The position numbers and the translations under genes are program-made. A stretch of 64,000 bases of DNA from Gemmatimonadota bacterium. Its GTDB lineage: Bacteria > Gemmatimonadota > Gemmatimonadetes > Gemmatimonadales > GWC2-71-9. Every line of letters starts with the position of its first letter. Positions within the stretch are counted from its first letter, which is position 1. The notes under the pieces are model-generated. The model was not told where the DNA came from, made no database searches, and was given only the letters and a program-made list of their open reading frames with translations. Of this stretch, positions 8,642 to 36,458 are shown one piece after another. The stretch spans positions 8,186 to 72,185 of the forward strand of contig JBDHKN010000034.1 of NCBI GenBank assembly GCA_039586365.1, in the 5' to 3' direction.

Positions 8642-8663
8642 AAATCCCGCGAATAAACACGAT

Positions 8664-18269: not shown

Positions 18270-18704
18270 ATGGCCGACAATACGGTTGACCGACTCTTGG
18301 TTTTTCGGGTGGCTGAGCAGAACTATGCGGCTGTTGCTTCGGTTGTCCGTGAGATTCTCCCAGCTCAAAACGCTACGCGAATACCAGGTGCCACGGATTC
18401 CGTCAAGGGCTTGATCAACGTGCGCGGCCGCCTGATCACCTTGGTCGATGGACGCAAGGCTCTCAGCCACCCACCTGACGGGGGTGATGGGCCAGTCGTT
18501 ATCTTGGATGTGGGAGAGATAGCGGTTGGATTCGCGGTCGACACAGTCCTCGACTTTTGCTCCGTTTCCGCCGGTGATCTCACTGAGCGAGGGGAACTGC
18601 CCGGTATCGATCCTCGTCTGGTCCGAGCGGTGGGTCGCCAAGCCGATATATCTTTCGTGCTCCTCGACGTCGAGGCGTTACTGTCACCAATAATGGTTGC
18701 CTAG
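18270..18704 (+). CDS. cheW: CheW domain protein
   Basis: LLVFRV...VVREI...TRIPG...VKGLINVRGRLITLVD...FAVDTV; ATG 18270 lies 1 nt after the rluD stop. Confidence 0.88.
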   Translation: MADNTVDRLLVFRVAEQNYAAVASVVREILPAQNATRIPGATDSVKGLINVRGRLITLVDGRKALSHPPDGGDGPVVILDVGEIAVGFAVDTVLDFCSVSAGDLTERGELPGIDPRLVRAVGRQADISFVLLDVEALLSPIMVA

Positions 18705-18716
18705 AGGGGGGAACGC

Positions 18717-19079
18717 GTGAGTCACTCAGTCCTCGTTTGCGACGACGCGATCTTCATGAGAACGATGATCAGCGACATCCTGTCTCAAGCGGGATACGAA
18801 GTTGTCGGAGAAGCTGAGACCGGGCTCCAAGCTGTTGCGAAGTACAAGGAGCTGAAGCCCGATCTCGTGACCATGGACATCGTGATGCCCGACATGGGTG
18901 GGATTGATGCGGTGCGCGAGATCGTTGCTCACGATCCCGATGCCTGTATTCTGATGTGTAGCGCCATGGGTCAACAGGCACTGGTTGTGGAGGCGATTCA
19001 GGCTGGTGCCAAGGACTTCGTGGTCAAACCGTTTCAACCCTCTCGGGTCCTTGAGGCGGTGCAGCGGGTTCTCGGATAG
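18717..19079 (+). CDS. cheY: Chemotaxis response regulator CheY
   Basis: Stand-alone receiver: VCDDAIFMR, TMDIVMP, CSAMGQ, FVVKPF (Thermotoga/Bacillus-like). Confidence 0.93.
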   Translation: MSHSVLVCDDAIFMRTMISDILSQAGYEVVGEAETGLQAVAKYKELKPDLVTMDIVMPDMGGIDAVREIVAHDPDACILMCSAMGQQALVVEAIQAGAKDFVVKPFQPSRVLEAVQRVLG

Positions 19080-19081
19080 GC

Positions 19082-20941
19082 ATGGACCTGTCGCAATATG
19101 CGGAGTTATTCCTTGCCGAGAGTCGGGAACACCTAGGCACCATCAATCAACAGCTCCTTGAGTGGGAGCGCGTCCCGGAATCCGGCGAACCCGTCGGTGG
19201 CATATTCCGGGCGGTCCACACTATCAAAGGCATGGCAGCCACCATGGGCTATGCCGACGTCACCGATCTCGCTCACCGGATGGAGAACCTCCTCGACATC
19301 CTCCGCAGCGGTGAACACGAGGCCACCGACCAGGTATTCGAGCTCCTGTTTCAGGCTGCGGATGCCCTCGACAAAGTAGTTGAGTCGTCGGTCTCAGGCA
19401 GGGAGTTGGATGCGGACACGAGCGATGTGCTCGCGCGGCTCGACGCCACATGCCAGGCGTTGGTGCCGACGGCGAAACCCAGGCCGCCACCTGTCCCACG
19501 ATCAGTGGATCCGCCACAAGCCGCCGGAAAGTGGGTGCGCGTGGTAATCGATCCCAGCGCCACCCTCAAAGGTGCGCGGGCAGCAGTCGTTCTGAGGCGC
19601 CTGGAGCAGATTGGCCAGGTCAATACAGTGCAGCCACCGGCCACCGTTTTTGAAACTGAGGATTTCGACGGTGAGTTCGGACTCCGAATCGAAACCTCCG
19701 CTGACGATGAAGTCATTGAGGAGCAGATCCGCGCGGCGGGAGACATCGCAGAGGTTTACGTCGGTAATGGTGCGGGAGACAGATTGGTCGAGCGGCCGGA
19801 GGCGCGGACACGGCATATAAGGGTGGACCTCAGGCGCGTGGATGCAATGATGAACTTGGTGGGAGAACTGGTGACCACCAAAGATCGCCTGGCGCAACTC
19901 AGCGCCGGTCGGGGTGACCCGACGCTCGATGATGTCAGCCTCAAGATGTCTCACCTCACTACACAGCTGCAATCGGAGATTCTAGATGCCCGCATGACGC
20001 CGGTGTGGCAGGTGTTCGATCGTTTCCCAAGACTCGTCAGGGATCTATCCAAGCAGCTCGGTAAGGTGATCGAGTTCAAGGTCGAAGGGAAGGAGATAGA
20101 GCTCGATCGGGCGATCTTGGATGAGATCGCTGATCCCTTGGTTCATCTACTGCGAAACGCGGTCGATCACGGGATTGAACCGGCGGCCGAGCGGGTGGCT
20201 GCAGGGAAGCCGCCGAGCGGCCACATCGTTCTGTCGGCCGTGCGCGAGCGAGCGACCGTCGCGATTCAGGTGAGCGACGATGGGCGGGGAATCGATCGAG
20301 CGAAGTTGCTGGCGGATGCCAAGCGGACTGGTATGCTCGATGAAGACGTCGATGTGCTCAGCGACGAGTTGTTGTTACGGGTGCTGTCACGGCCTGGCTT
20401 CAGCACTGCTGCTGCAGTGTCAAATGTGTCGGGTCGTGGGGTCGGGATCGATGCCGTGGCCAGCAGTCTGCGAACTCTGGGTGGCGGACTCGAGGTGCTC
20501 AGTGTGCCGGGACAGGGGACGGTGTTCAGCTTGCGGCTACCCATAACACTGGCTATTGTGCGCGCGCTCACGGCTGAAGTTGGGGAGGAACGCTACCTTC
20601 TTCCCGTGACGCACGTTGCCGAGACAGTCGATCTGAGTGAAGAGACGACCACCAGCTTGGAGGGTGAAGATGCGATGCTCTTCAGGGGGGAGATGATCCC
20701 GCTGCTGGATCTTCGCAAGGTAGTGCAGCTGCCGGGAGAGGGGCATGGTCGACGACCGGTTGTGGTACTCCAAATTGGCGAGCGGAGGTCCGGTTTGGTG
20801 GTCGATGCTCTCACCGGTCAGCAGGAGATCGTGGTCAAGACCTTCGATGCACCGCGCGGCACATTACCCATCTTCAGTGGGGCGACAGTCTTGGGTGATG
20901 GATCGCCGGCCCTCATTCTGGACACCGGCGGACTAGTGTAG
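19082..20941 (+). CDS. cheA: Chemotaxis histidine kinase CheA
   Basis: P1 FRAVHTIKG, P2 domain, P3 MNLVGEL, P4 HLLRNAVDHGIE/DDGRG/GFST/SGRGVG, C-terminal CheW-like P5; no receiver domain. Confidence 0.96.
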   Translation: MDLSQYAELFLAESREHLGTINQQLLEWERVPESGEPVGGIFRAVHTIKGMAATMGYADVTDLAHRMENLLDILRSGEHEATDQVFELLFQAADALDKVVESSVSGRELDADTSDVLARLDATCQALVPTAKPRPPPVPRSVDPPQAAGKWVRVVIDPSATLKGARAAVVLRRLEQIGQVNTVQPPATVFETEDFDGEFGLRIETSADDEVIEEQIRAAGDIAEVYVGNGAGDRLVERPEARTRHIRVDLRRVDAMMNLVGELVTTKDRLAQLSAGRGDPTLDDVSLKMSHLTTQLQSEILDARMTPVWQVFDRFPRLVRDLSKQLGKVIEFKVEGKEIELDRAILDEIADPLVHLLRNAVDHGIEPAAERVAAGKPPSGHIVLSAVRERATVAIQVSDDGRGIDRAKLLADAKRTGMLDEDVDVLSDELLLRVLSRPGFSTAAAVSNVSGRGVGIDAVASSLRTLGGGLEVLSVPGQGTVFSLRLPITLAIVRALTAEVGEERYLLPVTHVAETVDLSEETTTSLEGEDAMLFRGEMIPLLDLRKVVQLPGEGHGRRPVVVLQIGERRSGLVVDALTGQQEIVVKTFDAPRGTLPIFSGATVLGDGSPALILDTGGLV

Positions 20942-20951
20942 GAGAGACCGA

Positions 20952-21575
20952 ATGGAAGACTTGCGTCATCTCGAGTCGCTGCAACTCGATGCATTAAAGG
21001 AAGTGGCCAACATAGGGGCGGGTCATGCCGCCACAGCGCTGTCGCAGCTTACCGACCGTCGCATCATGATTGACGTGCCTGAGATCATGGTAACGGATCT
21101 GGACGGCCTCGCTGACCTGTTGGTGGCCACTGACAGGGTCGTTGCAGCGGTGCTAATGCACATGCTCGGGGATCTCACCGGGCGCACCCTCCTCATGATC
21201 CCGGAGGAGAACGCGAAGCTCCTGTGCGATCTCCTGCTCAAGCGGGATCCAGGAACAACACAGTCATTCGACGAACTGGAGCGATCCGGCCTGAAAGAGG
21301 CGGGCAACATCCTTGGCGGGGCCTACATGAATGCCCTGTCCGACTTCATGGGAATGATGTTGCTGCCGTCGGTCCCCAGCCTAGCCATAGACCTCGCGTC
21401 AGCAGTCGTGACCACAGCACATCTGAGCTTTGGGCGTGATCGCGACTACGTGTTCTGCGTCGAGACCGATTTCCACTTCGAGGAAGCTGACCGAAAGCTC
21501 AAGGGCCACTTCTTGTTGTTGCCCGACCTCGCCTCACTGAAGGAGATCCTCAAGGCCATCAGGTTGATGGGATAG
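20952..21575 (+). CDS. cheC: CheY-P phosphatase CheC
   Basis: Two active-site motifs DALKEVANIGAG and SGLKEAGNILGG, each followed by a conserved Pro. Confidence 0.93.
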   Translation: MEDLRHLESLQLDALKEVANIGAGHAATALSQLTDRRIMIDVPEIMVTDLDGLADLLVATDRVVAAVLMHMLGDLTGRTLLMIPEENAKLLCDLLLKRDPGTTQSFDELERSGLKEAGNILGGAYMNALSDFMGMMLLPSVPSLAIDLASAVVTTAHLSFGRDRDYVFCVETDFHFEEADRKLKGHFLLLPDLASLKEILKAIRLMG

Positions 21576-21579
21576 GGAG

Positions 21580-24252
21580 ATGTCATTAACCGAGAGAGAT
21601 CATGATATTCTCCGGTCGCTAGCACGTTGCATCGATCCGTCCGATGCAGGTGCTCACAACAACCTCGGTGTACTCTACTACATGAAGGACCTGACGGCGG
21701 AAGCGGTGGAGCAGTTCGCTCGAGCGTTGGAGCTGGATCCCAGGATGCAGGTGGCCGAGCGCAACCTCGAGTTGGCTTACCGACGCTCAGGCCACTACAA
21801 CGAGCAGGTGCGGGAACTACGGAGGCAACTTCGGTCGGACCCGGAGAACCGTGATGCTCGTTGGGAACTGGGACGCGCTTACGCATCGCTGGCCCAATAC
21901 GATGCTGCTGCGAGTGAGTTCCAGACGATTCTGTCTCGTGACCCCACCGACGTCGCTGCGATCGTGCAACTGGCGTTGGCCGAGAAGAAACTGGGGCAGT
22001 TGGAAACGGCGTCGGAATGGCTGGAGCGGGCGGCGGATCTTGATCCAGCGAGCAGTGTGGTGCGGTTCTATCTCGGTGAGGTGATGTATAACCGGGGGCT
22101 CAACGCAGAGGCGCTCGAGGCTCTGGAGCAAGCCGTAAAAGTCAGTCCCGATTACGCCGATGCCCATTACCTGTTGGCCTTTGTGCTGGGCGATATGGGG
22201 CGGCATGACGAGGCGCGCAAAGCGACCAAGCGGGCGATACAACTCAACCCTACCTATGGAAGGGCTCAGACGAACCTGTCAATTGAGCGGGTGACCGGTG
22301 AGAGTGTGGGCGCTACTTCAGAGACACCGCAATCCGCGGGCGCCGACACCCACCAGGGCACTCTCGCTCACTACAATCTCGGCCGTGCCTTCCGACGGCA
22401 GGGTTACTACCAGGAGGCGCTGCACGAGTATCAATTGGCTTTGGACCGTGGCGAGGACCACTTCTTGGTTGAGCACGGCGTGGCTGAGGTCCACTTGCTG
22501 CGACGGGACTATGCCGGTGCCATTGAATTGTATGAAGTGCTGGTTGAGGCGTCTCCTGACTCCGCCAAACTGTGGAATGAACGTGGCGTCGTGCTGCATC
22601 AACTGGGCAGGTTCGAGGACGCAGTCGCATCTTATCGTCGCGCTGTCGAACTCACTCCGGCCTATACACTAGCCCACAACAACCTGGGGATAGCGCTGGC
22701 TCAGCAGGGGAGCCACGACGACGCGTTGGCTGCCCTCTCTCAGGCTGCCGGCAGTGATCCCAAGCTGCCGGTTGCGCGACTCAATCTTGGTCTCCTGTTG
22801 CTCAAGCTCGGTAGGTTGGAGCTGGCGTTGGCGACGTTTCGGAAGCTGCTGGAGCAACATCCCGACACAGCTGGGGCGTGGAATGGGATAGGTCTCGTAC
22901 TCAACGAACTGGGACGACCTGAGGATGCCAGAAACGCCTTCGGTCGAGCTGTCGAAGCCGACTCGAATTCAGCTGAGGCGCACTACAATCTGAGCTTTGC
23001 TCTCTCGAAACTCGGTGACTATGACGGTGCTCTGCGGACTGTGACGCGTGCTCAGACGCTGGATCCTTACTACGTTCCTCAAAAGTTCAGACTGTCTATC
23101 GACCTGCAGTATGAGGATCCCGATCTATCTGTCGTACCAGAAATATCGGCCGACGTGATGGCCGAGACGACCAGCGCAATCAAGTTTGATCAGGGCCTGA
23201 TTGACAATCTGTTCGCGGAACTCGACAGTGCGGCAAGACAGGAAATACCTGTCTCGACGTCCGATCCGCTGACGTTGGCACGGGATTATCTGGACAAGGG
23301 TCTGCTGGACTTGGCTGCTGCTGAAACGGACCGCGCGGCAAACCGGGGAGCGGATCCGGTAGATATGCAGATCCTGTCGGGACACATTTACGCGCGTCAA
23401 GGCCTGCACGGCGAGGCTTTGGAGCGCTACCGAGGGGCGAAGAGTGCGGACCCTGATAGTGCGGTTGCGCGGTTGGGCGAGATTCGTCAGCTGGTCGCAC
23501 TCGGTAGAGGAGCCGAGGCAGTCGCCGACGCCGCTGCCCTGGCAAGTGAGCACCCCGACAACGTTGACGTACTGGTGGCACTGGCCGAAACACAACTCGC
23601 CGCTGGCGATCCCGCCAATGCGCTCGAGTACCTCAAGGAGGCCCGCGGACGAGCCCCGCAGCGAGCTGACATACTCAAGCTGGAAGGCGATATCGCTGTG
23701 GACATGGGCGATCTGGAGACTGCACAGCAAGCCTACGAGGGAGCCCTGGACCTGGAACCACGATTCGCGCAGGTCCGGCTGGACCTGGGGAAGCTGCACG
23801 AGGCCAGGAACGACCTGGTCGCCGCCGAGCGGTCCTACAGAGCGGCACTGGAGACTCTGCCTACCCTTTCTGAAGCCGCAATCGCACTGGCTCAGGTGTA
23901 CCGGCGTGCGGGCCGCTCGCGGCTGGCCGTGAACCTACTGATCGAAGTGCTCCAGAATGATCCATCGGATCTGGAGACGCTGATCGGCCTGGGGCAGTCT
24001 CTGCTGGATGATGGCCGGGTAGAGCGGGCGCTTGAGGCGTTCGGGCGCGTACTGGCATACCAGAGCAACCACGCTGGTGCCCATTTCTATCTGGGTATGG
24101 CACTGGGCCGACAACGCTGCTACACCGAGGCTATCGCGAGATGGCAGTCCGTGATTGCTCTGGAGCCGAACGGCCCATTTGCGCATGAGGCACGCAAACA
24201 CATTCGCACAGCAAACGACCTGCAGCACGTCTTCCCGACCACGGTGGCATAG
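21580..24252 (+). CDS. Large cytoplasmic multi-TPR protein
   Basis: Repeated TPR consensus (AHNNLG, AHYNLG, AWNGIG etc.) over most of 890 aa, interrupted by linkers; no signal peptide. Confidence 0.88.
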   Translation: MSLTERDHDILRSLARCIDPSDAGAHNNLGVLYYMKDLTAEAVEQFARALELDPRMQVAERNLELAYRRSGHYNEQVRELRRQLRSDPENRDARWELGRAYASLAQYDAAASEFQTILSRDPTDVAAIVQLALAEKKLGQLETASEWLERAADLDPASSVVRFYLGEVMYNRGLNAEALEALEQAVKVSPDYADAHYLLAFVLGDMGRHDEARKATKRAIQLNPTYGRAQTNLSIERVTGESVGATSETPQSAGADTHQGTLAHYNLGRAFRRQGYYQEALHEYQLALDRGEDHFLVEHGVAEVHLLRRDYAGAIELYEVLVEASPDSAKLWNERGVVLHQLGRFEDAVASYRRAVELTPAYTLAHNNLGIALAQQGSHDDALAALSQAAGSDPKLPVARLNLGLLLLKLGRLELALATFRKLLEQHPDTAGAWNGIGLVLNELGRPEDARNAFGRAVEADSNSAEAHYNLSFALSKLGDYDGALRTVTRAQTLDPYYVPQKFRLSIDLQYEDPDLSVVPEISADVMAETTSAIKFDQGLIDNLFAELDSAARQEIPVSTSDPLTLARDYLDKGLLDLAAAETDRAANRGADPVDMQILSGHIYARQGLHGEALERYRGAKSADPDSAVARLGEIRQLVALGRGAEAVADAAALASEHPDNVDVLVALAETQLAAGDPANALEYLKEARGRAPQRADILKLEGDIAVDMGDLETAQQAYEGALDLEPRFAQVRLDLGKLHEARNDLVAAERSYRAALETLPTLSEAAIALAQVYRRAGRSRLAVNLLIEVLQNDPSDLETLIGLGQSLLDDGRVERALEAFGRVLAYQSNHAGAHFYLGMALGRQRCYTEAIARWQSVIALEPNGPFAHEARKHIRTANDLQHVFPTTVA

Positions 24253-24254
24253 CT

Positions 24255-25409
24255 ATGGCGATCGAGGGCCCACTCAGAGAACTGGGCATTCACGACGTCT
24301 TTCAGTTACTCGATTTGAGTCGGAAGACCGGCAAGCTGACCGTGACGTCCAGACTGCGGCAAAACGGTGGCAGCGTGTTTTTCGAGCGAGGATCGGTCGT
24401 CTACGCTGAGATCGAAAGCAACCCGCATCTGCTGGGACGGCTGTTGGTGCAGTCGGGCAAGATCAACGAGGCTGATTTGAACAGAGCCCGCGATATGCAG
24501 CTGGAAGGAGACGAGCGGCGTTTGGGTGAAATCTTGGTGGACATCGGGGCGTTGACGGAGAAGGACCTAGAGAGACAGATGAGGTCCCAGATCGAAGAGG
24601 TTGTTTTTGAGCTCGTCGGCTGGCAGGAGGGCTACTTCTCCTTTGTTGAGGGTGAGCTGGCCGGCCTGGGTGCGGAAGCCAAGGTGCGGATCTCGACGGA
24701 GTCACTCTTGATGGAGGGCGCGCGCCGGATCGACGAGTGGTCGCGGATCGAGCGGAAGATCCCGCACCTGGGCGTCGTGCCGAGGTTCGCAGCGCGTAAC
24801 CCGGAGCAGCCGGAAGGCTACCTCGATCTGCTGCCCTTTGAGTGGCAAGTCCTTGCGGCCGTCGACCATGAGCGGGACATCCGTGCGGTGGCTGTGAGTT
24901 TGGGCAGGTCCGAGTTCGAGGTGGCCAAGGCGGTGTTTGGTCTTGAGAGTGCCGGCCTTCTGGAGCTGGAGGAGCAGCCTGGGACTGCTGCTGTGGGGGG
25001 AGGGGCAGAGGAAGTGCGGGATGCCCTCCGGCGCGCAGAGGCTGCCATGGATGCTGGGGATCTGGCACAGTCCCGACGTTGCGCGGAGCTGGCCCGGACG
25101 GGGGCACCCCACGATCCACTGGTCCACCTTATACTGGGTAAACTGGATCTGTCGGAACATCGTGCCGAGGCAGCTGAACAACACCTGCGCCGAGCGTTGC
25201 GGATCGATCCGATGCTCGTGGCCGCGCATCGACTGCTGGGCAACACGTTGGCGTTGCAGGGACGTTATTCCGAAGCGATCGAATGGTGGCAGCGGTGGAT
25301 GACTCTCGGTGAGCGCACCGAGAAGGATGCCGCCGATGTTGAGCAAGTTGAAGAAGCGCTCAAGGCCGTAGAGCGTCTTGACACCATACTCGGAGGTGCA
25401 CGTGGCTGA
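24255..25409 (+). CDS. DUF4388 (PatA-N-like) domain + MshEN-like repeat + TPR protein
   Basis: MAIEGPL..L.I.DVFQLL..SRKTGKL N-terminus; LLMEGARRIDEW; C-terminal TPRs. Confidence 0.82.
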   Translation: MAIEGPLRELGIHDVFQLLDLSRKTGKLTVTSRLRQNGGSVFFERGSVVYAEIESNPHLLGRLLVQSGKINEADLNRARDMQLEGDERRLGEILVDIGALTEKDLERQMRSQIEEVVFELVGWQEGYFSFVEGELAGLGAEAKVRISTESLLMEGARRIDEWSRIERKIPHLGVVPRFAARNPEQPEGYLDLLPFEWQVLAAVDHERDIRAVAVSLGRSEFEVAKAVFGLESAGLLELEEQPGTAAVGGGAEEVRDALRRAEAAMDAGDLAQSRRCAELARTGAPHDPLVHLILGKLDLSEHRAEAAEQHLRRALRIDPMLVAAHRLLGNTLALQGRYSEAIEWWQRWMTLGERTEKDAADVEQVEEALKAVERLDTILGGARG

Positions 25410-26196: not shown

Positions 26197-26543
26197 CCGA
26201 GCGATTGCGGCAGTCACTGGACAAGATCACGCGGGTTCGCGGTGTGCGGGGAGCGCTCTTGGTGACCGGGGACGATGGTCTGATCGTGGCAGACGCCGTA
26301 ATGGACAGTGTGCGTGGTGACGCGGTAGCGGCTCTCGGGGCAAACTTGGCCACGCGCATGGCGAAGACGTGCGAATGCTCCGGAGTTGGCAGCCTGCAGT
26401 TTGTCCATCTCCAGTCGGTCCAGGGGACCCTCTTGGTCATGCCTTTGGCCGAGGAAGTGGTCCTGGTGGTCATCGGCGACAAGGACATCAACGTCGGCTT
26501 GGTCAGGCTGGAGATGCAAGGCATGTCGGAGGCGGTGCCGTGA
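26193..26543 (+). CDS. Roadblock/LC7 domain protein
   Basis: GVRGALLVTGDDGLIVA...VAAL...NVGLVRLEM; GTG 26193 overlaps the upstream stop. Confidence 0.85.
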   Translation: MTERLRQSLDKITRVRGVRGALLVTGDDGLIVADAVMDSVRGDAVAALGANLATRMAKTCECSGVGSLQFVHLQSVQGTLLVMPLAEEVVLVVIGDKDINVGLVRLEMQGMSEAVP

Positions 26544-27010: not shown

Positions 27011-27013
27011 GTT

Positions 27014-27613: not shown

Positions 27614-29568
27614 CGACCGAGCTCAACCCCGGAATGACCTTCGAGAGCTTTGCGGTAGGGCCAGGTAATCAGTTAGCGGTGACTGCGGCTCGAGCTGTGG
27701 CGGAACGGCTCGACGGAGCTTACAGCCCACTCTACATCCATGGGGGAGGAGGGCTCGGCAAGACACACCTACTCATAGCGATCGGACATGTGGCGGCCGA
27801 GGCGTTTCCCCCCCGGGTGGTGGAGTACTTCACGCCGAGTCGCCTAGCCGAGGCCTTCAATGCGGCGGCTTCAGCGGGCCAGAGTGAAACGTTCCGCAAT
27901 CTGCTGGCCGACGTCGACGTATTGTTGATCGACGATGCGCATCTTTTCGAGCGAAGGCAGGGCGCAAACACTGAGCTCCAGAGATTGACGCAGGACATCT
28001 TGGTTGAGGGGAGGAACCTCGTTCTTGCTGGCCATGTTCCACCCGGCGAAATCGACGGCCTGCGCAGGGAACTCGTAACGGCCTTGTCACAGGGACTAGT
28101 TGTTGAGATCGAACCGCTTGATTACGAAACGCGGTTGGCCATTTTGCAGCGCCGGGCGGAGAGCCGCGCTTCAGGCCTGGATCAGACTGTGCTGGCAGCG
28201 GTCGCCGAGTTCAATATCACCACTGCCAGAGAGTTGATCGCATTGCTCAATCGGCTGATCGCACTGGATGCGGTAAGTGAGACTCGGTTGATGCCTGATG
28301 CAGCAAGAGCGCTGTTAGAGGGAGAAGCACTTGCACTGGACGGGCGGCGTCCGGTACCATCGGTGGGTGGGGCAGAGACCCAGCGAGACGAGTTCGCGGA
28401 CTTCCTGTCCGAAGTGAGTGTCGCGGTCCAACAGCAGATCGAGGGGTGGGAGACGGACGTTCGGGATGCGATTGAGCGGTGGGGCCGTGAAGGTTTCGAC
28501 ACGAAGAGGCTGGAAGGGCTTCTCACGCAGAGTAATCCGATGCCGGTTGAGGCAACCATAGTGGAGTTCGAGCGAGACGTCCAGCAACTCCGAACCCTCC
28601 GTGAATCTGTTGCGGCAACCGATCCCACCCAGGCGGATGATCCGGTATTCTGTGATCCCGACCGGGTATCGGAGGCACACATATTGGCCGAGAGTATCGT
28701 GCCGGCTGTGGAGCTACCTCCCGGTCCCTCGTCTGCCTGGACCTTCGACAGTTACATCGAGACAGAAGGCAACAGAGCGGCCAACCAGGCCGTGCACGAG
28801 GTAGTGGATTCGCCAGTATCGGCGCACAATCCGCTCGTAATCGTGGGAGCGACCGGAGTGGGGAAGACACACCTCCTGCATGCACTGGGGAGCGGTCTGA
28901 GCGAGCATCTCGCCATGCCGGTAGCCTGTCTTTCCGGGCAGGAGTTCCACACCCTGGCCAGGAGCGCGGTCGAAGAGAATGCGCTTGAGGCCTTCGGGTC
29001 GCTGTTTGATCGGGCGGGTGCGCTGCTGATTGACGATATACACATGCTGGTGGGGCATGAGCGATCTCAAGAAGAACTGTACAGGATTGTCTCAGTGCTC
29101 ATAGGGACATCCCGGCAAGTCGCATTCACCGTCAGTTCTGACCCTGCCGAGATCGACGGTCTCACCGCACAGCTGAGGCAGTGCATTGACGGTGGCAGGC
29201 AGGTGGTGTTGACGTCACCCGACCGTGAATTGCGACGCCGCTTGGTGCAGCGGGTGCTGCGGGATCGGGTGGGAGAAGCCGATCCTGAACTGCTGGATTA
29301 CTTGGCGGATCGACCGGCTGAATCAGTGCGGGTGGTGACGGGCCTAGCCCAGCGGATAGTCGACTCCGCGGACGGCCAAGGCTTGCCGCCTAGTGCGGCT
29401 CTCGCCCGTCAGCTGATCGAAGGGGCCCTCCCCAAGGTGGAGCGAGTGTCTCGAGGGATGCGAACCAGTGGGGTCATGGTTTCGCTGGCGAGCGGCGTCA
29501 AGAGTCGCGAGAAGATGATCTGGAACTGGCCCGATCCGGGAGAGCGGCTGATAGAGGAACTTTCGTAG
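27610..29568 (+). CDS. Protein with two DnaA/Hda-type AAA+ domains and no DNA-binding domain
   Basis: Domain 1: LNPGMTFESF..G.GN, GGGGLGKTHLL, LLIDD. Domain 2: WTFDSY..GN, GATGVGKTHLL, LLIDDIH. No DnaA domain I or IV. Confidence 0.85.
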   Translation: MTTELNPGMTFESFAVGPGNQLAVTAARAVAERLDGAYSPLYIHGGGGLGKTHLLIAIGHVAAEAFPPRVVEYFTPSRLAEAFNAAASAGQSETFRNLLADVDVLLIDDAHLFERRQGANTELQRLTQDILVEGRNLVLAGHVPPGEIDGLRRELVTALSQGLVVEIEPLDYETRLAILQRRAESRASGLDQTVLAAVAEFNITTARELIALLNRLIALDAVSETRLMPDAARALLEGEALALDGRRPVPSVGGAETQRDEFADFLSEVSVAVQQQIEGWETDVRDAIERWGREGFDTKRLEGLLTQSNPMPVEATIVEFERDVQQLRTLRESVAATDPTQADDPVFCDPDRVSEAHILAESIVPAVELPPGPSSAWTFDSYIETEGNRAANQAVHEVVDSPVSAHNPLVIVGATGVGKTHLLHALGSGLSEHLAMPVACLSGQEFHTLARSAVEENALEAFGSLFDRAGALLIDDIHMLVGHERSQEELYRIVSVLIGTSRQVAFTVSSDPAEIDGLTAQLRQCIDGGRQVVLTSPDRELRRRLVQRVLRDRVGEADPELLDYLADRPAESVRVVTGLAQRIVDSADGQGLPPSAALARQLIEGALPKVERVSRGMRTSGVMVSLASGVKSREKMIWNWPDPGERLIEELS

Positions 29569-31187
29569 TGGCTATCAAAGGCAGTCTCAAGGAAGCGTCC
29601 CTCCCAGACGTGCTCCAACTGCTATCGCTCGGGCGCAAGACGGGCTGTCTGTCCGTTTCAGACCGTTCAAGCCTGGGGTACGTCTTCTTCGATGCAGGCC
29701 GAATCATATACGCCACCGTTGTCAACAGGCGCGACAGGCTCGGGGACATACTCCACAAGAGCGGCAGGATCACGCAGAAACAGCTGGACGAAGCCGTACG
29801 ACTGCAGGACGCGGGTCGCGACAAGAAGTTGGGAGAGATCCTGGTTGAAACCGGGGCTATCTCGCAATCTGAGTTGGAGCATTGCGTGCGGCTGCAGATA
29901 GAGGAAGCTGTCTTCTTTCTGTTCACATGGCGGCGCGGGAGCTTCACTTTTGAGAGCGACGTCCGACCGCACCGTCAGGATTACCTGGTCTCCATCGATC
30001 CTGAGGCTCTCCTCTTGGAGGGAGCACGGCGGATTGACGAGTGGAGCCTCATCGAGAAGAAAGTCCCCTCTTTTGACCTGGTGTTCCAAACTGACGAGGA
30101 GCGCCTGATGTCCTCCGACGCTTCCCTGTCGGAAGCGCAGCAGCGCATTGCACCCCTACTGAACGGCAGCCGCGACCTATTCGCAGTGATCGAAGAGACC
30201 GGGCTCGTAGAGTTCGAGGTCGGCAAGGCGCTTTACGGACTTCTGACCGCTGGCTTCGTTCACCAGGTAGGCCGCAAAGCAGCGGAGCGGCGGCGCGAGG
30301 TCTCTGGGGTCCGTATCGATGAGCACAGGAACCTCGGCATCGCGTTCTATCGCACCGGGATGCTAGATGAGTCGTTGCGTGAGTTCCGTCGAGTGGTTGA
30401 GCTGGGGCCGTCGGACGGGGGTGCCTACTTTTACCTCGGCCTCATCTACTTCAAGCAGGCGCAGTGGCAGCAGGCGATCGAAGCGTTCAAGCAGGCAGTG
30501 GAGAAAGGTGGATCACAGCCGTCAATACTCTATAACTTGGCGCTCAGCTACGAGAAAGCCGGGATGCTCGCCGAAGCGGAGGAGGCCTATGCCGACTCGG
30601 CGACTCGAGCACGTCGGGATTCACGCGTCCTGACAGGTTGGGGGCTGGTGGCCTTGCACCGCAGTGACTTCGAAGTGGCAGAGGGCCGGCTCGACCGGGC
30701 ACGTGAGGTGACCGGTGGCGAGGGCATGAGTGCCATCTGGTACTGGGCTCGCTCACTGGCAGCTGGGGCTCAGGAGGACTACGATTCGGCGGAACGCATC
30801 TTGAGAGAAGGTGTAGAGCTGTTTCCCGAACATGCTGTGCTGCGAAACAACCTGGGAGCCCTACTTGAATTGCTGGGCCGAGTCGACGAAGCCGAGGAGC
30901 TTTTGAAGACGGCGCTGGCAGACGAACCGAGCGTCCCGCAACTGTCGAAGAATCTCGGTGATCTCCACTACCGGAGCGGCCGCTACGACGAAGCGTGGGA
31001 TGCCTATCAACGCGCAGTCAAGCTCCAGCCCGAGTTGGGCGACGATGTGTATTTCAAGCTGGGCAACATCGCGTACAAGCGGCAAGATCGCGAGCTCGCA
31101 ACCACCTGCTGGCACAAGGCTCTTGAGCTGAACCCGATTCACGAGTTGGCTCGCACGAACCTAGAGACTGTGAGCGCCCTTAAGTGA
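29568..31187 (+). CDS. DUF4388 (PatA-N-like) domain + MshEN-like repeat + TPR protein
   Basis: MAIKGSLKEASLPDVLQLL..GRKTG; LLLEGARRIDEW; multiple C-terminal TPRs; paralog of 24255..25409. Confidence 0.82.
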   Translation: MAIKGSLKEASLPDVLQLLSLGRKTGCLSVSDRSSLGYVFFDAGRIIYATVVNRRDRLGDILHKSGRITQKQLDEAVRLQDAGRDKKLGEILVETGAISQSELEHCVRLQIEEAVFFLFTWRRGSFTFESDVRPHRQDYLVSIDPEALLLEGARRIDEWSLIEKKVPSFDLVFQTDEERLMSSDASLSEAQQRIAPLLNGSRDLFAVIEETGLVEFEVGKALYGLLTAGFVHQVGRKAAERRREVSGVRIDEHRNLGIAFYRTGMLDESLREFRRVVELGPSDGGAYFYLGLIYFKQAQWQQAIEAFKQAVEKGGSQPSILYNLALSYEKAGMLAEAEEAYADSATRARRDSRVLTGWGLVALHRSDFEVAEGRLDRAREVTGGEGMSAIWYWARSLAAGAQEDYDSAERILREGVELFPEHAVLRNNLGALLELLGRVDEAEELLKTALADEPSVPQLSKNLGDLHYRSGRYDEAWDAYQRAVKLQPELGDDVYFKLGNIAYKRQDRELATTCWHKALELNPIHELARTNLETVSALK

Positions 31188-31996
31188 ACAAGAGGCGGCG
31201 CGATCCCGACCTCGCCGCTCTGGTTGAAAAGATTGCTCGGGAACGCCACTTCGGCTTCGACGCATACAAAGAGGGTTGTCTCAGGCGACGTGTGGCAGTT
31301 CGCATGAGAGTAAGAGGCGTGACGACCTATGAGGAGTACGCTGAACTACTGGATCGCGATACGAACGAATACGAGAGTCTCCTGGACACCCTCACTATCA
31401 ATGTCACCAAGTTCTACCGTAACAGAGAGACCTGGGAAGCGTTGGCTCGGAACCAGCTTCGGGCCCTGCTACGATCGCGGGGAGGCCAGGTCCGGTGCTG
31501 GTCGGCAGGGTGTGCGTCCGGTGAGGAACCGTTCACACTGGCGATATTACTGTTCGAGACGGCAGCACATGAGCGACTCACAGCGACGGCGATTCAAATC
31601 GACGCTACCGATTTCGACTCAAACAGCCTTAACCGTGCTCGCCGTGGCGAGTACAGCAAGGCCGCGTTCGACGAAATGCCAGCGGACTTGGCTCGGCGGT
31701 ACTTCAGTGATGGTAGCGTTAGGGTGGTCGACCAACGAATCAGCGGAACCGTACGGTTCCGTCGCCACGACATCACCAGAGAGCCACCACCGGAGCCGCC
31801 ATACGACTTGATTATGTGCCGGAATGTGCTGATCTATTTTGATCGCGCTACTCAGGATCGCTTAGTATCCCAGTTCATAGGGGCTCTGCGGCCCGGAGGC
31901 TACTTGGTATTGGGAAGGGCAGAGACGATACTTGGTGACCTCCGTGAGTGCGTGAAATTGGAGGATCCGCGTGAGCGCATCTATCGGCGGCCATGA
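31184..31996 (+). CDS. cheR: Chemotaxis methyltransferase CheR
   Basis: LTINVTKFYRN, WSAGCASGEEP, DLIMCRNVLIYF. Confidence 0.95.
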   Translation: MNKRRRDPDLAALVEKIARERHFGFDAYKEGCLRRRVAVRMRVRGVTTYEEYAELLDRDTNEYESLLDTLTINVTKFYRNRETWEALARNQLRALLRSRGGQVRCWSAGCASGEEPFTLAILLFETAAHERLTATAIQIDATDFDSNSLNRARRGEYSKAAFDEMPADLARRYFSDGSVRVVDQRISGTVRFRRHDITREPPPEPPYDLIMCRNVLIYFDRATQDRLVSQFIGALRPGGYLVLGRAETILGDLRECVKLEDPRERIYRRP

Positions 31997-32487
31997 GTGA
32001 GGGTCCGGCAGAGACCCTGGTGCGTCTCGGTGCCCTTGAGGTGACTGATCAAGCAGACACCCTCATGGCGTTGGGGTTGGGCAGCTGTGTGGCCGTGATC
32101 CTTCATGATCCCAAGGCGAAGGTAGGCGGTCTCGCCCATATCCTCCTGCCATCTCAGTCGTTGTCGCGTGACAGTACGAATTTCGCACGGTCCGCCGATA
32201 CGGCTGTGCCGCGTCTCCTTCAATTGATGCACGAGCGCGGTGCGACCCGCAGTCAGGTTGTGGCGCGACTAGTTGGCGGAGCGAGCATGTTTGCCGATTT
32301 GCTGGCTGCCGGCACGGTCCATATTGGTGAGCGAAACGTCAATGCATGTAGGCTGAGCCTACGTCGGGCGGGGGTGCCCATAGTAGGAGAAGCGGTCGGT
32401 GGCCAGAAGAGCCGCTCAGTCTGGCTCGACGTGGGACGGGGTACAGTCACCGTACGCACGGTGGGTGGTGAGCCGACAACTATCTAG
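31993..32487 (+). CDS. cheD: Chemoreceptor glutamine deamidase CheD
   Basis: LGSCVAV (catalytic Cys), AHILLP (His), GGASMF, IGERN. Confidence 0.93.
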   Translation: MSEGPAETLVRLGALEVTDQADTLMALGLGSCVAVILHDPKAKVGGLAHILLPSQSLSRDSTNFARSADTAVPRLLQLMHERGATRSQVVARLVGGASMFADLLAAGTVHIGERNVNACRLSLRRAGVPIVGEAVGGQKSRSVWLDVGRGTVTVRTVGGEPTTI

Positions 32488-33547
32488 TTCACAAGCCACT
32501 GTCCTCGTAGTGGACGACAGCGCCTTCATGCGACGCATATTGGCGGATGCCATCTCCGAGTCCGATAGCTTCAGGCTGGCTGGTACGGCCCGGGACGGTG
32601 TCGACGCCATTGAGAAGGTGAACAGGCTCGAGCCAGATCTCGTAACGATGGACATCGAAATGCCGAGGCTCGGTGGGTTGGATACGATAGAGAGAATCAT
32701 GCAGGAGAGTCCTCGACCCATTGTTGTAGTAAGTGCTCATGCAGGGTTGGGTACGGCCGCGGCCATCAAAGCTCTTGAGGTGGGAGCGGTTGAGGTCGTT
32801 GCCAAACCGAGCGGGCGAGATCCCGCAGGTCTCGCCGTGATGGTTTCGTCCATGATGGCCGCTCTCACCGCGGCCGCAATGGCAGTCGTAGAGCGGACAC
32901 CGCCAATATCCGTCGACCGAGAGATCTTGTATGCCCAGGCGCATTCTGGTCGCAAGCCGCGCCATGCACGAGCTGCGGTGGCTATTGCGGCCAGCACAGG
33001 AGGTCCCCGTGCGCTCACGCAGCTGGTGCCCGCGATACCCTCGGGTCTGGGTCTTGGTACCCTCGTGGTCCAACACATGCCCGCAGGGTTTACCAAGAGC
33101 TTGGCGCAACGGCTGCATGAGTTGAGCTGCTTGACCGTCGTGGAAGCTGAGGATGGTATGGAGGTTCTGGCCGACACGGTGTACGTAGCACCCGGCGACC
33201 ATCATATGCGGGTGGCCGGCCCAGACGGCCTGCTGATACGGTTGGATCGCGACACTCCCGTGTGGGGTGTGCGACCGGCGGCCGATCCACTGTTCTACTC
33301 AGTGGCGGCGCACTTTGGCCCGCGGGCGGTGGGTGTGGTGCTGACAGGCATGGGGCGAGACGGTGCTGCCGGTCTCAAGGCGATAAGAGATGCTGGGGGG
33401 AGGGGAGTCGTGCAAGACCAGGCCACCTCGGTGGTGTTCGGTATGCCAAAGGCCGCTATTGATGCAGGTGGTGCTAACGCGATTGAGCCTTTGTCGGGAC
33501 TCGCGTCCGCGGTCACTAGGTTTGTTACAAGCGAGGGAGGTCATTGA
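32468..33547 (+). CDS. cheB: Chemotaxis methylesterase/response regulator CheB
   Basis: Receiver VVDDSAFMR, MDIEMP; esterase triad ASTGGP, QHMP, LTGMGRDG; start GTG 32468 inferred. Confidence 0.94.
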   Translation: MSRQLSSSQATVLVVDDSAFMRRILADAISESDSFRLAGTARDGVDAIEKVNRLEPDLVTMDIEMPRLGGLDTIERIMQESPRPIVVVSAHAGLGTAAAIKALEVGAVEVVAKPSGRDPAGLAVMVSSMMAALTAAAMAVVERTPPISVDREILYAQAHSGRKPRHARAAVAIAASTGGPRALTQLVPAIPSGLGLGTLVVQHMPAGFTKSLAQRLHELSCLTVVEAEDGMEVLADTVYVAPGDHHMRVAGPDGLLIRLDRDTPVWGVRPAADPLFYSVAAHFGPRAVGVVLTGMGRDGAAGLKAIRDAGGRGVVQDQATSVVFGMPKAAIDAGGANAIEPLSGLASAVTRFVTSEGGH

Positions 33548-33972
33548 AGGGTTATCTCCGCGTTCGCGCAGAGGGCACACACTACGGCCTACGGGTGGAT
33601 CAGGTGCTCGAAGTAGTAGACGGGTTCGAGCTGCGTCGGGTACCGGCCACACACGAATCAGTGCGCGGTGTCACTCCGTTGCGAGGACGGCTAGTACCGC
33701 TGATTCAACTAGCCGCGCTCCTGGGTGATCGGCCACCACCGCCCACTCTTGGTGGAACCGCTGTGCTGGTGCGGTGTTCCGGATTGGTGGTGGCCTTCGA
33801 GGTGGACGATGCGGAGGAGCTCGTTGCGGAGAATCCCCTCCCTGTCCCGGACGTCTGGCGGCTTCCCTGGGCGTCAGGTGTGGGGCGCTATCGCGGGGAC
33901 CTCATACCAATCATCGATCTCGAGATTCTGGCAGGGCGATTGATGCCTGGACGCGAGGGTACTGGGGAATGA
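33544..33972 (+). CDS. cheW: CheW domain protein (divergent)
   Basis: YGLRVDQVLEV...RVP...VRGV..LRGRLVPLI; TTG start after GGGAGG. Confidence 0.8.
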   Translation: MKGYLRVRAEGTHYGLRVDQVLEVVDGFELRRVPATHESVRGVTPLRGRLVPLIQLAALLGDRPPPPTLGGTAVLVRCSGLVVAFEVDDAEELVAENPLPVPDVWRLPWASGVGRYRGDLIPIIDLEILAGRLMPGREGTGE

Positions 33973-34445
33973 GCGTGGGTGACGAGATCCAGTTGGTGAC
34001 CTTTCGCCTCGGCGGGCATGAGCTTGCGTTCAACGTTTTCGAGGTAGAGCGAGTGTTGCGGTACGAGGGACCCACTCCACTGCCGGATTCCCCAGATTAT
34101 CTCCTGGGGACTCTCCGCTACGGTAGCGAGGTGGTGCCGGTAGTCGATCTGCGAAAGCGGCTCCGAGTGCCCGCTACCGTGGAGGATGTTACCAGGATCA
34201 TTGTGGTTCAGTGGGAACATGGAAGACTCGGAGTAGTGGTTGATGCGGTGCTCGAAGTCACCAAAGTGTCCGCCGACGAAATCGTACCACCACCGCAATT
34301 CGTGAAGGGACTTGCGGCTGAGTGCGTTGGGGGTATCGTGTCGGCGGGCGACCGGACAATAGTCGTACTCGCGGTGGCAAGGCTGCTCGCGTCCAACGAG
34401 CAGCTGAAATTGGACACTCTGATGGCGGAGATACCCCATGGGTGA
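33969..34445 (+). CDS. cheW: CheW domain protein
   Basis: QLVTFRLG...VERVL...LPDSPDYLLG...VVPVVDLRKRL...GVVVDAVLEV; ATG 33969. Confidence 0.88.
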   Translation: MSVGDEIQLVTFRLGGHELAFNVFEVERVLRYEGPTPLPDSPDYLLGTLRYGSEVVPVVDLRKRLRVPATVEDVTRIIVVQWEHGRLGVVVDAVLEVTKVSADEIVPPPQFVKGLAAECVGGIVSAGDRTIVVLAVARLLASNEQLKLDTLMAEIPHG

Positions 34446-35301
34446 ACCGATTGTTGCCCAAATGCGGGCCCTTTACAACGAGATCGTTCAGAACCTAGAG
34501 GCGGTGCGGTCCGGTGGTGATAGAGAGGCGGTCAAGCACGACATCATCGCTCTGTTCAAGACAGTCGATCAGGGCATAACAGACCTCACCGAGCTGAAGG
34601 AAGACATTAGGGTCCTGGTCGAGAAATACAAACAGCTAGCCCAGAGCACGAGCGGAGACCGGGCGCCAGAGTTCACGGGGGCTGTTCCCGCCGTCAGGGT
34701 CGACCACATCGGTGCTTCGACTTTCATCGAGAAGGGGTGGAGCCTCATCTCACTGGGGGATTATCCCGGTGCGCTACTGGCCCTGAACAAGGCGCTGTCG
34801 CTGTCACCCGGCGATGTGCAGGCTGAGTCGTTGCTCGGCTGGGCACAGATGCTCAACGAAGACTACGATGATGCGCTGGCGACCTTTCAGCAGGTTCTCA
34901 TGAAAGAGCCGGCCAATTCCTTGGCTCGTATCAACGTTGGCTACATCTGCCTGAAGAAGGGCATTTTCGGGGAAGCGATCGAGCACCTTTCCAAGGCCAT
35001 TAGGTTGGACAATGACAAGAAGGCGACGTTGTATGCGCACTTCTACTTGGGCTTGGTGTACCTCGAGCGGGACATGTACGAGGATGCGCAGACGTTCTTT
35101 GAGAAGACACTCAGGCTCGGGCCGAATTTAGTCGAAGCGTACTACGAGCTCGGGCGCGCGCAGTGGTTCGCCGGGGACCGGGAAGGAGCGAAGGGTACCT
35201 GGGCCAGCGGATACAAGACCAACAAGTTCAACTCTTGGGGCAAACGTTGTAAGGAGACCCTCAATTTGGTAGAGCGAGGACAGGAGCCACCACGTTCGTA
35301 G
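34438..35301 (+). CDS. Coiled-coil + TPR protein
   Basis: Helical N-terminus (~70 aa) followed by about five clean TPRs (ARINVG, AHFYLG, AYYELG). Confidence 0.82.
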   Translation: MGEPIVAQMRALYNEIVQNLEAVRSGGDREAVKHDIIALFKTVDQGITDLTELKEDIRVLVEKYKQLAQSTSGDRAPEFTGAVPAVRVDHIGASTFIEKGWSLISLGDYPGALLALNKALSLSPGDVQAESLLGWAQMLNEDYDDALATFQQVLMKEPANSLARINVGYICLKKGIFGEAIEHLSKAIRLDNDKKATLYAHFYLGLVYLERDMYEDAQTFFEKTLRLGPNLVEAYYELGRAQWFAGDREGAKGTWASGYKTNKFNSWGKRCKETLNLVERGQEPPRS

Positions 35302-35411
35302 CAGCGCTTCTCGTAGCCCTGCTGTCGCAGGACCCATCACTTGTCAGTGTCGGGCGAGCGAGTGCGGTTTTTTGGCCAGGTGATGAGTCGGGTGCGACGA
35401 TCCTGGCTGAA

Positions 35412-36155
35412 ATGGCTGACAAAGCCGGTCCTTGGCCGGGAATACCCAGTGTTTCAGAGCGGCGGGTCCGTCTGATCATCGCTCCAGACGACCAACGGTT
35501 TGACTCGCTCACCAGCAGTCGTCTGCCAGAGTGGGGTGGCGGAGCGGCGTTCCCGGGTTCGAACACGATCGTGCTGAAGCTCACCGGTGACGTGCGCAGG
35601 GTGCTGCGGCACGAGCTGGCCCATCTCGCGCTGCACAGTGTCGTCAAGCGAGTTCCCTTGTGGTTTGATGAGGGGTACGCGGCGTGGGCGTCTGGTGAGT
35701 GGGACCGTGTGAGGGCATTACGGGTAAACTGGGCGCTCCTGACTGGTGCCTCTCCTACCTTGCGGCAAGTCGAAGCAGACTTGAGGGGCAGCGTGGCCGG
35801 CGCTGAAACGGCCTATGCGCTGGCGATGACCGCGGTGCTGCTATTGGAGCATTTGGGTGGTGACCGCGGGCTAGAGCCGTTGATCGCCAACCTGGCCGAC
35901 ACCCCCGATTTCGATCGGGCGCTGCGGATCACCAATCAGATGACTCTGGGACAATTCGAGGAACTGTGGCGTCGCGAGTTGCGCACTCGCTACGGGTGGG
36001 TACTGTTTTTCGGATCTGTGACAGTGTTCTGGGCCGTGTTGGCGCTTGTGCTCACGAGTTTATGGTGGTGGCGCCGCCAGCGGGACCGGGATCGGCGGGC
36101 GGCTCTTGACGAAGGGTGGGTCGTTCCGCTAGATGAATGGGACGCAAGTGCTTGA
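35412..36155 (+). CDS. Membrane-anchored zinc metallopeptidase (peptidase MA-like/gluzincin); true start probably upstream
   Basis: RHELAH (HExxH) plus downstream PLWFDEG; C-terminal TM helix followed by a basic stretch; open frame extends 5' to 35253. Confidence 0.75.
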   Translation: MADKAGPWPGIPSVSERRVRLIIAPDDQRFDSLTSSRLPEWGGGAAFPGSNTIVLKLTGDVRRVLRHELAHLALHSVVKRVPLWFDEGYAAWASGEWDRVRALRVNWALLTGASPTLRQVEADLRGSVAGAETAYALAMTAVLLLEHLGGDRGLEPLIANLADTPDFDRALRITNQMTLGQFEELWRRELRTRYGWVLFFGSVTVFWAVLALVLTSLWWWRRQRDRDRRAALDEGWVVPLDEWDASA

Positions 36156-36383: not shown

Positions 36384-36458
36384 GGGCGAATAGCTCAGTT
36401 GGTCCAGAGCGCCTGCCTTACAAGCAGGAAGTCGGGGGTTCGAATCCCTCTTCGCCCA
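36384..36458 (+). tRNA. tRNA-Val(TAC)
   Basis: Acceptor GGGCGAA/TTCGCCC, D arm GCTC/GAGC, anticodon arm CCTGC-CTTACAA-GCAGG, T loop TTCGAAT; CCA not encoded. Confidence 0.97.

Follow-up and report, generated by a model that had tools for sequence, protein, structure and literature searches.

A conserved chemosensory gene cluster that encloses an MglA paralog, PATAN-TPR proteins and a tandem DnaA-fold ATPase in Gemmatimonadota

In a stretch of 64,000 nucleotides from a Gemmatimonadota genome (GenBank assembly GCA_039586365.1, contig JBDHKN010000034.1; hereafter the window), chemosensory (che) genes stand on both sides of a block encoding an MglA-type GTPase, roadblock proteins, proteins with PATAN (DUF4388) and tetratricopeptide repeat (TPR) regions, and a tandem DnaA-fold ATPase. 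This locus raises the question of whether the two gene sets form a single signalling system and, if so, (i) which receptors feed it; (ii) which proteins connect its chemosensory part with the GTPase; and (iii) what it controls. The architecture proved to be real and conserved; it is apparently undescribed and consists mostly of known parts, together with one apparently uncharacterised family, the tandem DnaA-fold ATPases.

The cluster comprises 18 open reading frames (ORFs) on the forward strand (18270-35301; Table 1), which, with the start codons chosen here, are separated by no more than 12 bases or slightly overlap; from PATAN protein a onward, stop and start codons overlap at most junctions. 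Its order is cheW-cheY-cheA-cheC, an 890-residue TPR protein, PATAN protein a, a TPR-roadblock fusion, a stand-alone roadblock protein, mglB and mglA, followed by the tandem ATPase, PATAN protein b, cheR-cheD-cheB-cheW-cheW and a terminal TPR protein, with the Mgl/ATPase block nested between the two che gene sets. An initial annotation of this DNA had described 18 co-directional, mostly abutting genes, and we found the ORFs and domains to be as it described; however, it extended the cluster to position 36155, which is the end of a nineteenth, peptidase-MA-like ORF, and left the terminal TPR gene unnamed. Co-direction alone is weak evidence here, because the entire window (205-62151) is encoded on the forward strand and the run is continuous with the upstream genes ileS-dksA-lspA-rluD, the first cheW beginning one base past the rluD stop codon. 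The GC content of the cluster is even with that of the remainder of the window, and a promoter and terminator scan returned no promoters and nine terminators (11.1 expected). In agreement with the initial annotation, a scan of the 57 main window ORFs revealed no gene for a receptor, flagellum or pilus; it did not turn up any polysaccharide gene either.

We compared the positions of CheA, MglA and ATPase matches in an even sample of 120 related genomes, all at least 90% complete, counting only top-scoring matches of the operon type and leaving out 26 weaker ones. An operon-type CheA lies no more than 12 kb from an operon MglA or ATPase in 69 of these genomes, most of them without a FliM/FliN match. 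This linkage of che and mgl genes was a check named in the initial annotation, and its outcome favours the proposal made there of one integrated system, although the route proposed, from CheA/CheY to the GTPase via TPR/DUF4388 adaptors, is hypothetical. In six further relatives CheA and the module are on different contigs, with mglA no more than 6 kb from a contig start (apparent contig edges); CheA alone was found in three genomes and the module alone in seven. Loci fetched from families f1-f5 and f8 have the genes in the same order, with rluD on one side and peptidase/rsmH on the other, and such recurrence in at least six families means that the arrangement is not due to chance. All named relatives are Gemmatimonadota, and in a genome scan that yielded at least 80 loci, 76 bore Gemmatimonad- names, two were named only 'bacterium' and two belonged to other taxa (possible mis-bins). 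In the three families outside the class no match to the cluster was obtained, only traces were detected in families f6, f7 and f9, and several near-complete genomes gave no match to the whole cluster. All 14 core genes are present in 18 of 42 fetched loci, a set in which variants are over-represented by choice, and in 34 of 80 loci among the matches listed, many of which are cut by contig ends.

Residue conservation was read from alignments of orthologs cut from relatives, with a few comparison rows from unrelated che clusters. Conserved positions include H46, N359 and D399 of CheA (38/38 rows), D54 and K104 of CheY (invariant in 38/38), E17, E116 and N119 (34/34) and N20 (31/34) of CheC, C32 and H49 of CheD (27/27), and S199, H226, D296 and D85 of CheB (32/32; numbering of the longest ORF). 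The catalytic residues of these five proteins and of MglA are all present in the window copies and, judged by these residues, the enzymes of the cluster look functional. CheY orthologs are 78-92% identical, and the best solved-structure match of CheY is 1tmy (E 1.9e-50), which we take to be a Thermotoga-type CheY. Against solved chains, CheA scores 324 bits with 6s1k, presumably an E. coli-type chain, and 310 bits with 3ja6, a marginal difference. It is the sole cheA found in the genome (a single tblastn match), and cheC, cheD and the cheB methylesterase were each found in one copy; an orphan CheR-like gene lies elsewhere (contig C34, 4139-4975).

The pathway had initially been called receptor-less, which is correct for the window but not for the genome (5.4 Mb in 132 contigs, 86% complete), where five orphan receptors are encoded on contigs other than that of the cluster. 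Their sensor regions are of the dCache, GAF or multi-membrane kind. The two that bear HAMP domains span 160 residues from HAMP to tip, which, by a calibration that we assume to hold, corresponds to the 44-heptad (44H) length; the other three are unclassed. In the alignment with 2ch7 the receptor C-arm is ungapped and the N-arm is seven residues longer. Within the host's own family, six of 55 genomes lack receptors, and these are exactly the genomes in which cheA is missing (G039, G040, G066, G105 and G108) or broken (G035, internal stop), although G040 is highly fragmented and kin genomes are not independent. Receptors disappear together with the operon CheA and probably belong to it. As separate observations, receptors L002 and L003 (contigs C126 and C125) combine several membrane helices with GAF and gave no match to the methylation-site pattern used, and loci L040 and L041 (G006 and G009) are cheA-cheB-cheY clusters in genomes where no receptor (at E 1e-12) and no FliM/FliN was found.

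Two features of the enclosed block were absent from the initial annotation: its MglA is a second paralog, and its DUF4388 proteins carry a motif of the c-di-GMP-binding type. The other mglBA pair lies beside dnaX-recR (contig C97, 136836-138024), with recR adjoining in all 20 loci examined, and is likely the canonical polarity pair. In a quick, midpoint-rooted tree, 33 operon and 20 recR-linked MglA rows fall on two sides of one branch (SH-aLRT 100); because the two groups split in this way, the operon MglA is, as judged from its sequence, a dedicated second paralog distinct from the recR-linked pair. It shows the Group 1 features that we looked for (motifs G1-G4, intrinsic R53, T78 and Q82), R53 being present in 32 of 34 rows and Q82 in all 34. 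The profile of the neighbouring MglB-like protein matches solved MglB (E 2.6e-18 across 141 positions), whereas Robl_LC7 proteins rank above MglB in a profile search with the stand-alone roadblock protein. A fifth roadblock gene is found elsewhere in the genome (contig C87, 41464-41724).

The most retained gene of the cluster is that for PATAN protein b, present in all 42 fetched loci; the terminal TPR gene, whose product has its nearest Atlas clusters mostly in Gemmatimonadota, is present in 36. The MshE-related c-di-GMP motif NF053729 scores 45.7 bits in PATAN b, above its cut-off, and 36.7 bits in PATAN a, slightly below the 38-bit cut-off. This MshEN-type motif is retained in most PATAN orthologs, and binding of c-di-GMP is predicted. 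Neither PATAN protein is fused to a receiver; both are PATAN-TPR proteins, and a structure model of PATAN b (pLDDT 87.5) retrieved only TPR solenoids among the Foldseek matches listed. The insertion motif of the 890-residue TPR protein was found in 76 of 86 rows. It is amphipathic and, in our assumption, resembles a CheY-binding helix, a role that we considered and rejected: the motif is kept in CheY-less loci (L047 and L093, partly L048) and gone from CheY-bearing ones (L006, L007 and L055).

The tandem DnaA-fold protein belongs to a family that databases name 'chromosomal replication initiator'. Its model (pLDDT 83.6, pTM 0.43) consists of two AAA+ domains linked by a helical bundle, with a terminal tail of low confidence; superposition on DnaA domain III (8bv3) gives an rmsd of 1.7 Å over 234 residues at 34% identity, and the DNA-binding domain IV (PF08299) was not found. 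A full-length dnaA-like ORF is present on another contig. In domain 1 of the orthologs, the positions that we take to be the Walker A and B, sensor I, arginine-finger and sensor II residues are well conserved (K51 and D108 in 31/31 rows, D at 142 and R158 in 28/31, R207 in 29/31), and most orthologs keep DnaA-type Walker A/B motifs in both domains; the window copy carries H142 and A158. The tryptophan-containing, acidic C-terminal tail is conserved as well (W640 in 31/31), and distant relatives share both linker and tail. Several observations tie the ATPase to PATAN b: their genes overlap by one base; they are the only cluster genes in locus L030; and wherever PATAN b is without the MshEN insertion (five loci from two lineages) the ATPase is missing too, although G110 retains the insertion where the ATPase is missing. 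A fusion of a tandem ATPase with a receiver (P0071) was not counted as a link, being a single sequence with a degenerate receiver 26% identical to CheY. Among the matches listed, a metagenome scan with the distant ATPases returned DnaA-like ORFs of ordinary length, 76 of 80 without any other cluster gene, and a single plasmid match was set aside as an unrelated DUF4388 context. Two proteins of 1,900-2,000 residues (P0074 and P0078) have an N-terminal MshEN region and two DnaA-type ATPase domains either side of a long helical region, providing a second case in which MshEN and DnaA folds are associated. Five others of 1,080-1,420 residues (P0106, P0112, P0122, P0126 and P0141) combine repeats like the central ATPase linker with one C-terminal DnaA-type domain, and some of these end in a zinc ribbon.

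We give an even chance to the reading that the whole cluster is one circuit, leading from the orphan receptors through CheA and phosphorylated CheY (CheY-P) to the PATAN/roadblock/MglA module and on to type IVa pili or cell polarity. The five receptors would feed the operon CheA, and CheY-P, reset by CheC and tuned by CheR, CheB and CheD, would act on the PATAN/MglA/ATPase module. PATAN b is the top candidate target of CheY-P, since no other gene outside the che set is retained in all loci examined. The GTP state of the dedicated MglA would be controlled by MglB and the other two roadblock proteins, while the PATAN domains may make contact with PilB/PilC and, by way of the MshEN-type insertion, sense c-di-GMP, with the tandem DnaA-fold protein as a putative non-replicative ATPase partner of PATAN b. 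The MglA switch would then decide whether type IVa pili extend, or at which site, c-di-GMP being a second input. A search for flagellar genes, as proposed in the initial annotation, gave no FliM/FliN or flagellin match in the host genome (86% complete), which does carry genes of a type IVa pilus, namely pilT, pilC, pilM, a pilin gene, a gene for a pilQ-like secretin and a pilB that scores above cut-off and itself bears a c-di-GMP motif, and has 10 GGDEF matches. A 901-residue TPR protein encoded outside the operon (contig C62, 10043-12748, reverse strand) has SgmX as its best NCBIfam match, at a score far below the cut-off (E 1.3e-25), and is a candidate effector of MglA. The steps that follow CheY are inferred, with two precedents: for the middle step, Frz acts on MglA polarity in Myxococcus xanthus (PMC12288465), and for the last step, in Synechocystis PATAN alone binds PilB1 and the N-domain of PilC and reverses phototaxis (bioRxiv 10.1101/2021.06.11.447907), both as given in the accessible parts of these sources. 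Chemical sensing through the cluster likely allows these bacteria of soil and water to direct their type IV pili. A bolder version, which we regard as doubtful, makes the cluster one physical switch in which a receptor-driven kinase, a dedicated GTPase, c-di-GMP-reading PATAN-TPR scaffolds and a double AAA+ protein derived from a replication initiator form an undescribed class of system ancestral to much of the Gemmatimonadetes; here the DnaA fold, instead of opening DNA, would build a landmark of polarity by which the pilus motor is gated, and CheY and PATAN b would be a split PatA-type regulator.

Several observations weigh against a single circuit with this output. No pilus gene adjoins the cluster, and with PilM found in 114 of 121 genomes, among them most of those without the cluster, the pattern of occurrence does not point to pili. 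(The near-complete genome G039, without a match for the cluster, receptors or PilM, is a single case of joint loss with a pilus gene.) The recR-linked MglA is closer than the operon MglA to solved Myxococcus MglA (284 and 247 bits), and with the SgmX-like TPR protein the recR-linked pair could run polarity without the operon. In the accessible account of Dif, the CheY/CheC pair acts as a phosphate sink and an orphan regulator provides the output (PMC12802240). The window ATPase lacks the arginine-finger position in both domains, and this copy may therefore be impaired or act as a scaffold, going by its residues. Some lineages have lost one half of the cluster and not the other: the TPR-PATAN-roadblock-MglA-ATPase-PATAN-TPR block is complete in G105 and G108, which have no cheW, cheY, cheA, cheC, cheR, cheB or cheD, and in G068 and G070 the che genes remain, along with PATAN b and the terminal TPR gene, but no MglA, roadblock proteins or ATPase. 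All three roadblock genes are missing in G099, G063, G088 and G090. The MglA of G103 and G034 (L016 and L032) is degenerate, with changes at R53, T54 and G81; in these loci the large TPR protein is reduced to about 385 residues and CheA is shortened, with gene order kept, and cheR, cheD and cheB are missing, as they are in G091. G103, moreover, keeps a FliM peptide discussed below with the operon CheA as its only CheA match. These deletion patterns fit input and output layers joined at PATAN b, but they also fit two independent blocks.

That the che pathway and the Mgl/ATPase block merely share an ancestral locus and promoter and exchange no signal is an explanation that we hold to be distinctly unlikely. 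The ten genomes with one half alone (seven and three, as above) speak for it, and the cluster is embedded in a long conserved housekeeping run, from rluD to rsmH, in which gene order may persist passively; on the other hand, in at least six families the block lies between che genes, with stop codons that overlap the next start, and che-only and module-only loci both keep PATAN b and the terminal TPR protein. The same surroundings, with divIVA upstream of the cluster and division and cell-wall genes downstream, might suggest control of the cell cycle or division site, the DnaA-fold ATPase being an oligomeric landmark or replication-initiation factor gated by the GTPase and the che pathway. The Walker A/B motifs in both domains and the arginine finger kept by most orthologs (28/31 in domain 1) agree with this, but the ATPase lacks a DNA-binding domain, a full-length dnaA-like ORF exists elsewhere, the neighbours are common housekeeping genes and the whole cluster was not found in several near-complete genomes, all of which makes such a role improbable. 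Ordinary flagellar chemotaxis, with CheY binding FliM and the inserted genes as passengers, is highly improbable: 52 of the 69 linked genomes lack a FliM/FliN match, and flagellated genomes often have their own cheA near fliM, a second cheA lying 22-63 kb from fliM/fliN in nine of them. We read FliM in nine genomes for the N-terminal motif that we take to be its CheY-binding peptide; it was seen in all four genomes with a second CheA (in two by eye) and was not found in four of the five in which the operon CheA is the only match. The exception, G103, favours a flagellar role, as do the FliM/FliN matches of the remaining 17 linked genomes, the similarity of CheY to the Thermotoga type and the incompleteness of the host genome. 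FliM without a recognisable peptide of this kind occurs in the flagellated genomes G021, G027, G026 and G091 (L217, L219, L220 and L223), whose motors may be unswitched or otherwise switched.

It also appears unlikely that the integrated system is a lifestyle switch like Dif of Myxococcus, with exopolysaccharide, adhesion or c-di-GMP-dependent surface commitment as its output, pili as upstream sensors, CheY/CheC as a sink and an orphan regulator as the effector. The CheA layout is that of DifE, the HAMP-bearing receptors are of the 44H length, the order cheY-cheA-cheC repeats difD-difE-difG (locus tags 6693, 6692 and 6691), and the two c-di-GMP-type motifs of the PATAN proteins would fit; according to the accessible part of PMC12802240, DifD/DifG is the phosphate sink, the orphan regulator EpsW the output, and pili are proposed to act upstream. 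This likeness, however, is one of layout and gene order; no receptor gene heads the cluster as difA would; the window scan showed no polysaccharide gene; and CheR, CheB and CheD are present, which suggests adaptation.

Beyond the 18 genes, the peptidase-MA-like ORF trails the cluster in most loci and persists where che genes have been lost; we regard it as a neighbour and only as a candidate member of the system. It is followed by a tRNA-Val gene at 36384, and the interval between the two contains a short hydrophobic stretch (36200-36370), possibly a gene for a small membrane protein. Elsewhere in the window are a TMEM260-like membrane protein of 842 residues (8547-11075) and a 612-residue ORF without a Pfam or NCBIfam match (55527-57365).

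Table 1. Genes of the cluster and the ORF that follows it, with window coordinates
Feature	Position	Strand	Evidence and remarks
cheW (1), 144 aa	18270..18704	+	PF01584 E 3.5e-26
cheY, 120 aa	18717..19079	+	PF00072; single receiver domain
cheA, 619 aa	19082..20941	+	Hpt-P2-dimer-HATPase-CheW layout, no receiver
cheC phosphatase	20952..21575	+	PF04509; NF041093 E 1.5e-50; both active-site motifs
TPR scaffold, 890 aa	21580..24252	+	TPR families; conserved non-TPR insertion near residues 497-548
PATAN/DUF4388 protein a, 384 aa	24255..25409	+	PF14332 E 6.8e-32; PATAN with MshEN-type insertion, then short TPR
TPR-roadblock fusion, about 264 aa	25402..26196	+	TPR matches; PF03259 E 0.0014, below cut-off
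Stand-alone roadblock, 116 aa	26193..26543	+	PF03259 E 5e-11
MglB-like GAP candidate, 156 aa	26540..27010	+	NF052242 E 1.2e-8, below cut-off
MglA paralog, 199 aa	27014..27613	+	G motifs intact, R53 and Q82
Tandem DnaA-fold AAA+ protein, 652 aa	27610..29568	+	two PF00308 stretches
PATAN/DUF4388 protein b, 539 aa	29568..31187	+	PF14332 E 5.5e-38; PATAN with MshEN-type insertion, small alpha/beta domain, TPR solenoid
cheR methyltransferase	31184..31996	+	PF01739, PF03705
cheD deamidase	31993..32487	+	PF03975
cheB, receiver and methylesterase	32465..33547	+	PF01339, PF00072; start uncertain, GTG at 32465 or 32468
cheW (2)	33544..33972	+	PF01584 E 5.6e-20
cheW (3)	33969..34445	+	PF01584 E 1.2e-28
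Terminal TPR protein, 287 aa	34438..35301	+	TPR families; N-terminal helical region
Peptidase-MA-like ORF	35412..36155	+	PF13485 E 7.5e-13; usual downstream neighbour of the cluster

No paper describing the cluster was found in a full-text literature search, most subscription journals being outside its reach. In the accessible text of Wuichet and Sogaard-Andersen 2014 (PMC4316618), Group 1 mglA genes are occasionally near PATAN genes, and the supplement files GAU_1409 of Gemmatimonas aurantiaca under Group 1 as PATAN>MglA>-PATAN>; these parts say nothing of che genes, an ATPase or a function at that locus. PATAN proteins were among the candidates of a Myxococcus pilus study and, in the part of that paper available, were not followed up there (PMC11580455). 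How chemosensory output flips the MglA switch is described as still open even in Myxococcus (PMC12288465, accessible part), partly because the genes are scattered. In the cluster, by comparison, kinase, CheY, GTPase, candidate GTPase-activating proteins and adaptors lie in one run, and together with the natural deletion variants this provides a short list of contacts. A circuit of this kind would assign a behaviour to an abundant, poorly studied phylum, most of whose sampled genomes have pili and no flagellar switch, and the cluster also defines the family of tandem ATPases.

Compared with known systems, the chemosensory core shows the features that we take to define the F1 class (Bacillus, Thermotoga and archaeal systems): a CheA of Hpt-P2-dimer-kinase-CheW layout without a receiver, CheC together with CheD, and 44H receptors (the two HAMP receptors). 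CheY is also highly similar to that of this class, and the receptor C-arm is collinear with 2ch7. Unlike F1-class systems, most carriers of the cluster have no flagellum that we could find, and a GTPase module is inserted. The statements that follow on published systems refer to the accessible parts of the sources cited. Dif is likewise non-flagellar, a counter-example to the premise of the initial annotation that systems with CheC and CheD normally drive flagella, and has, like the cluster, a single-domain CheY together with CheC; DifE consists of Hpt, P2, dimer, kinase and CheW domains without a receiver, and DifA is a 44H receptor (PMC3945109). Dif, however, has its receptor gene difA in the cluster and regulates exopolysaccharide, whereas the receptors here are orphans, none of them in the window, and cheR, cheB, cheD, the extra cheW genes and the GTPase block belong to the cluster.

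The cyanobacterial PatA-type Tax systems resemble the cluster in that PATAN is encoded inside a chemosensory cluster, but PatA is a PATAN-REC protein, whereas PATAN is fused here to MshEN-type and TPR regions and CheY is separate; moreover, the Tax systems are not described with MglA (bioRxiv 10.1101/2021.06.11.447907, same restriction). Conservons (CvnA-D) encode a histidine kinase, a roadblock protein and an MglA-family GTPase together (PMC4316618), but with a membrane sensor kinase, a Group 2 MglA and no response regulator; here the MglA is of Group 1 type (R53/Q82) and the Che pathway is full, and neither a CvnA membrane sensor kinase nor CvnC was found in the cluster. With DnaA and Hda the tandem protein shares the AAA+ fold; it differs in its two ATPase domains, helical linker and distinctive C-terminal tail, and in having no DNA-binding domain. 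The closest parallel in function is the Frz/MglA-MglB-RomR system, in which a chemosensory pathway is combined with Ras-like MglA/MglB in a non-flagellar setting with type IVa pili and TPR effectors such as SgmX (PMC12288465), and whose MglA has catalytic residues in common with the operon MglA. The differences are that the mglA of the Frz system is not near the genes of its partners (PMC4316618), whereas here all lie in one nested run; that FrzE is a CheA-CheY hybrid, whereas the operon CheA has P2 and no receiver; that CheC and CheD are present here and the operon MglA is a second paralog; and that neither PATAN-MshEN-TPR proteins nor a tandem DnaA-fold ATPase have a described counterpart in the accessible accounts of the Frz system (PMC12288465, PMC4316618). 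Most plausibly, then, the cluster works like the control of MglA by Frz, yet it is not a member of the Frz system, and its che core is F1/Dif-like.

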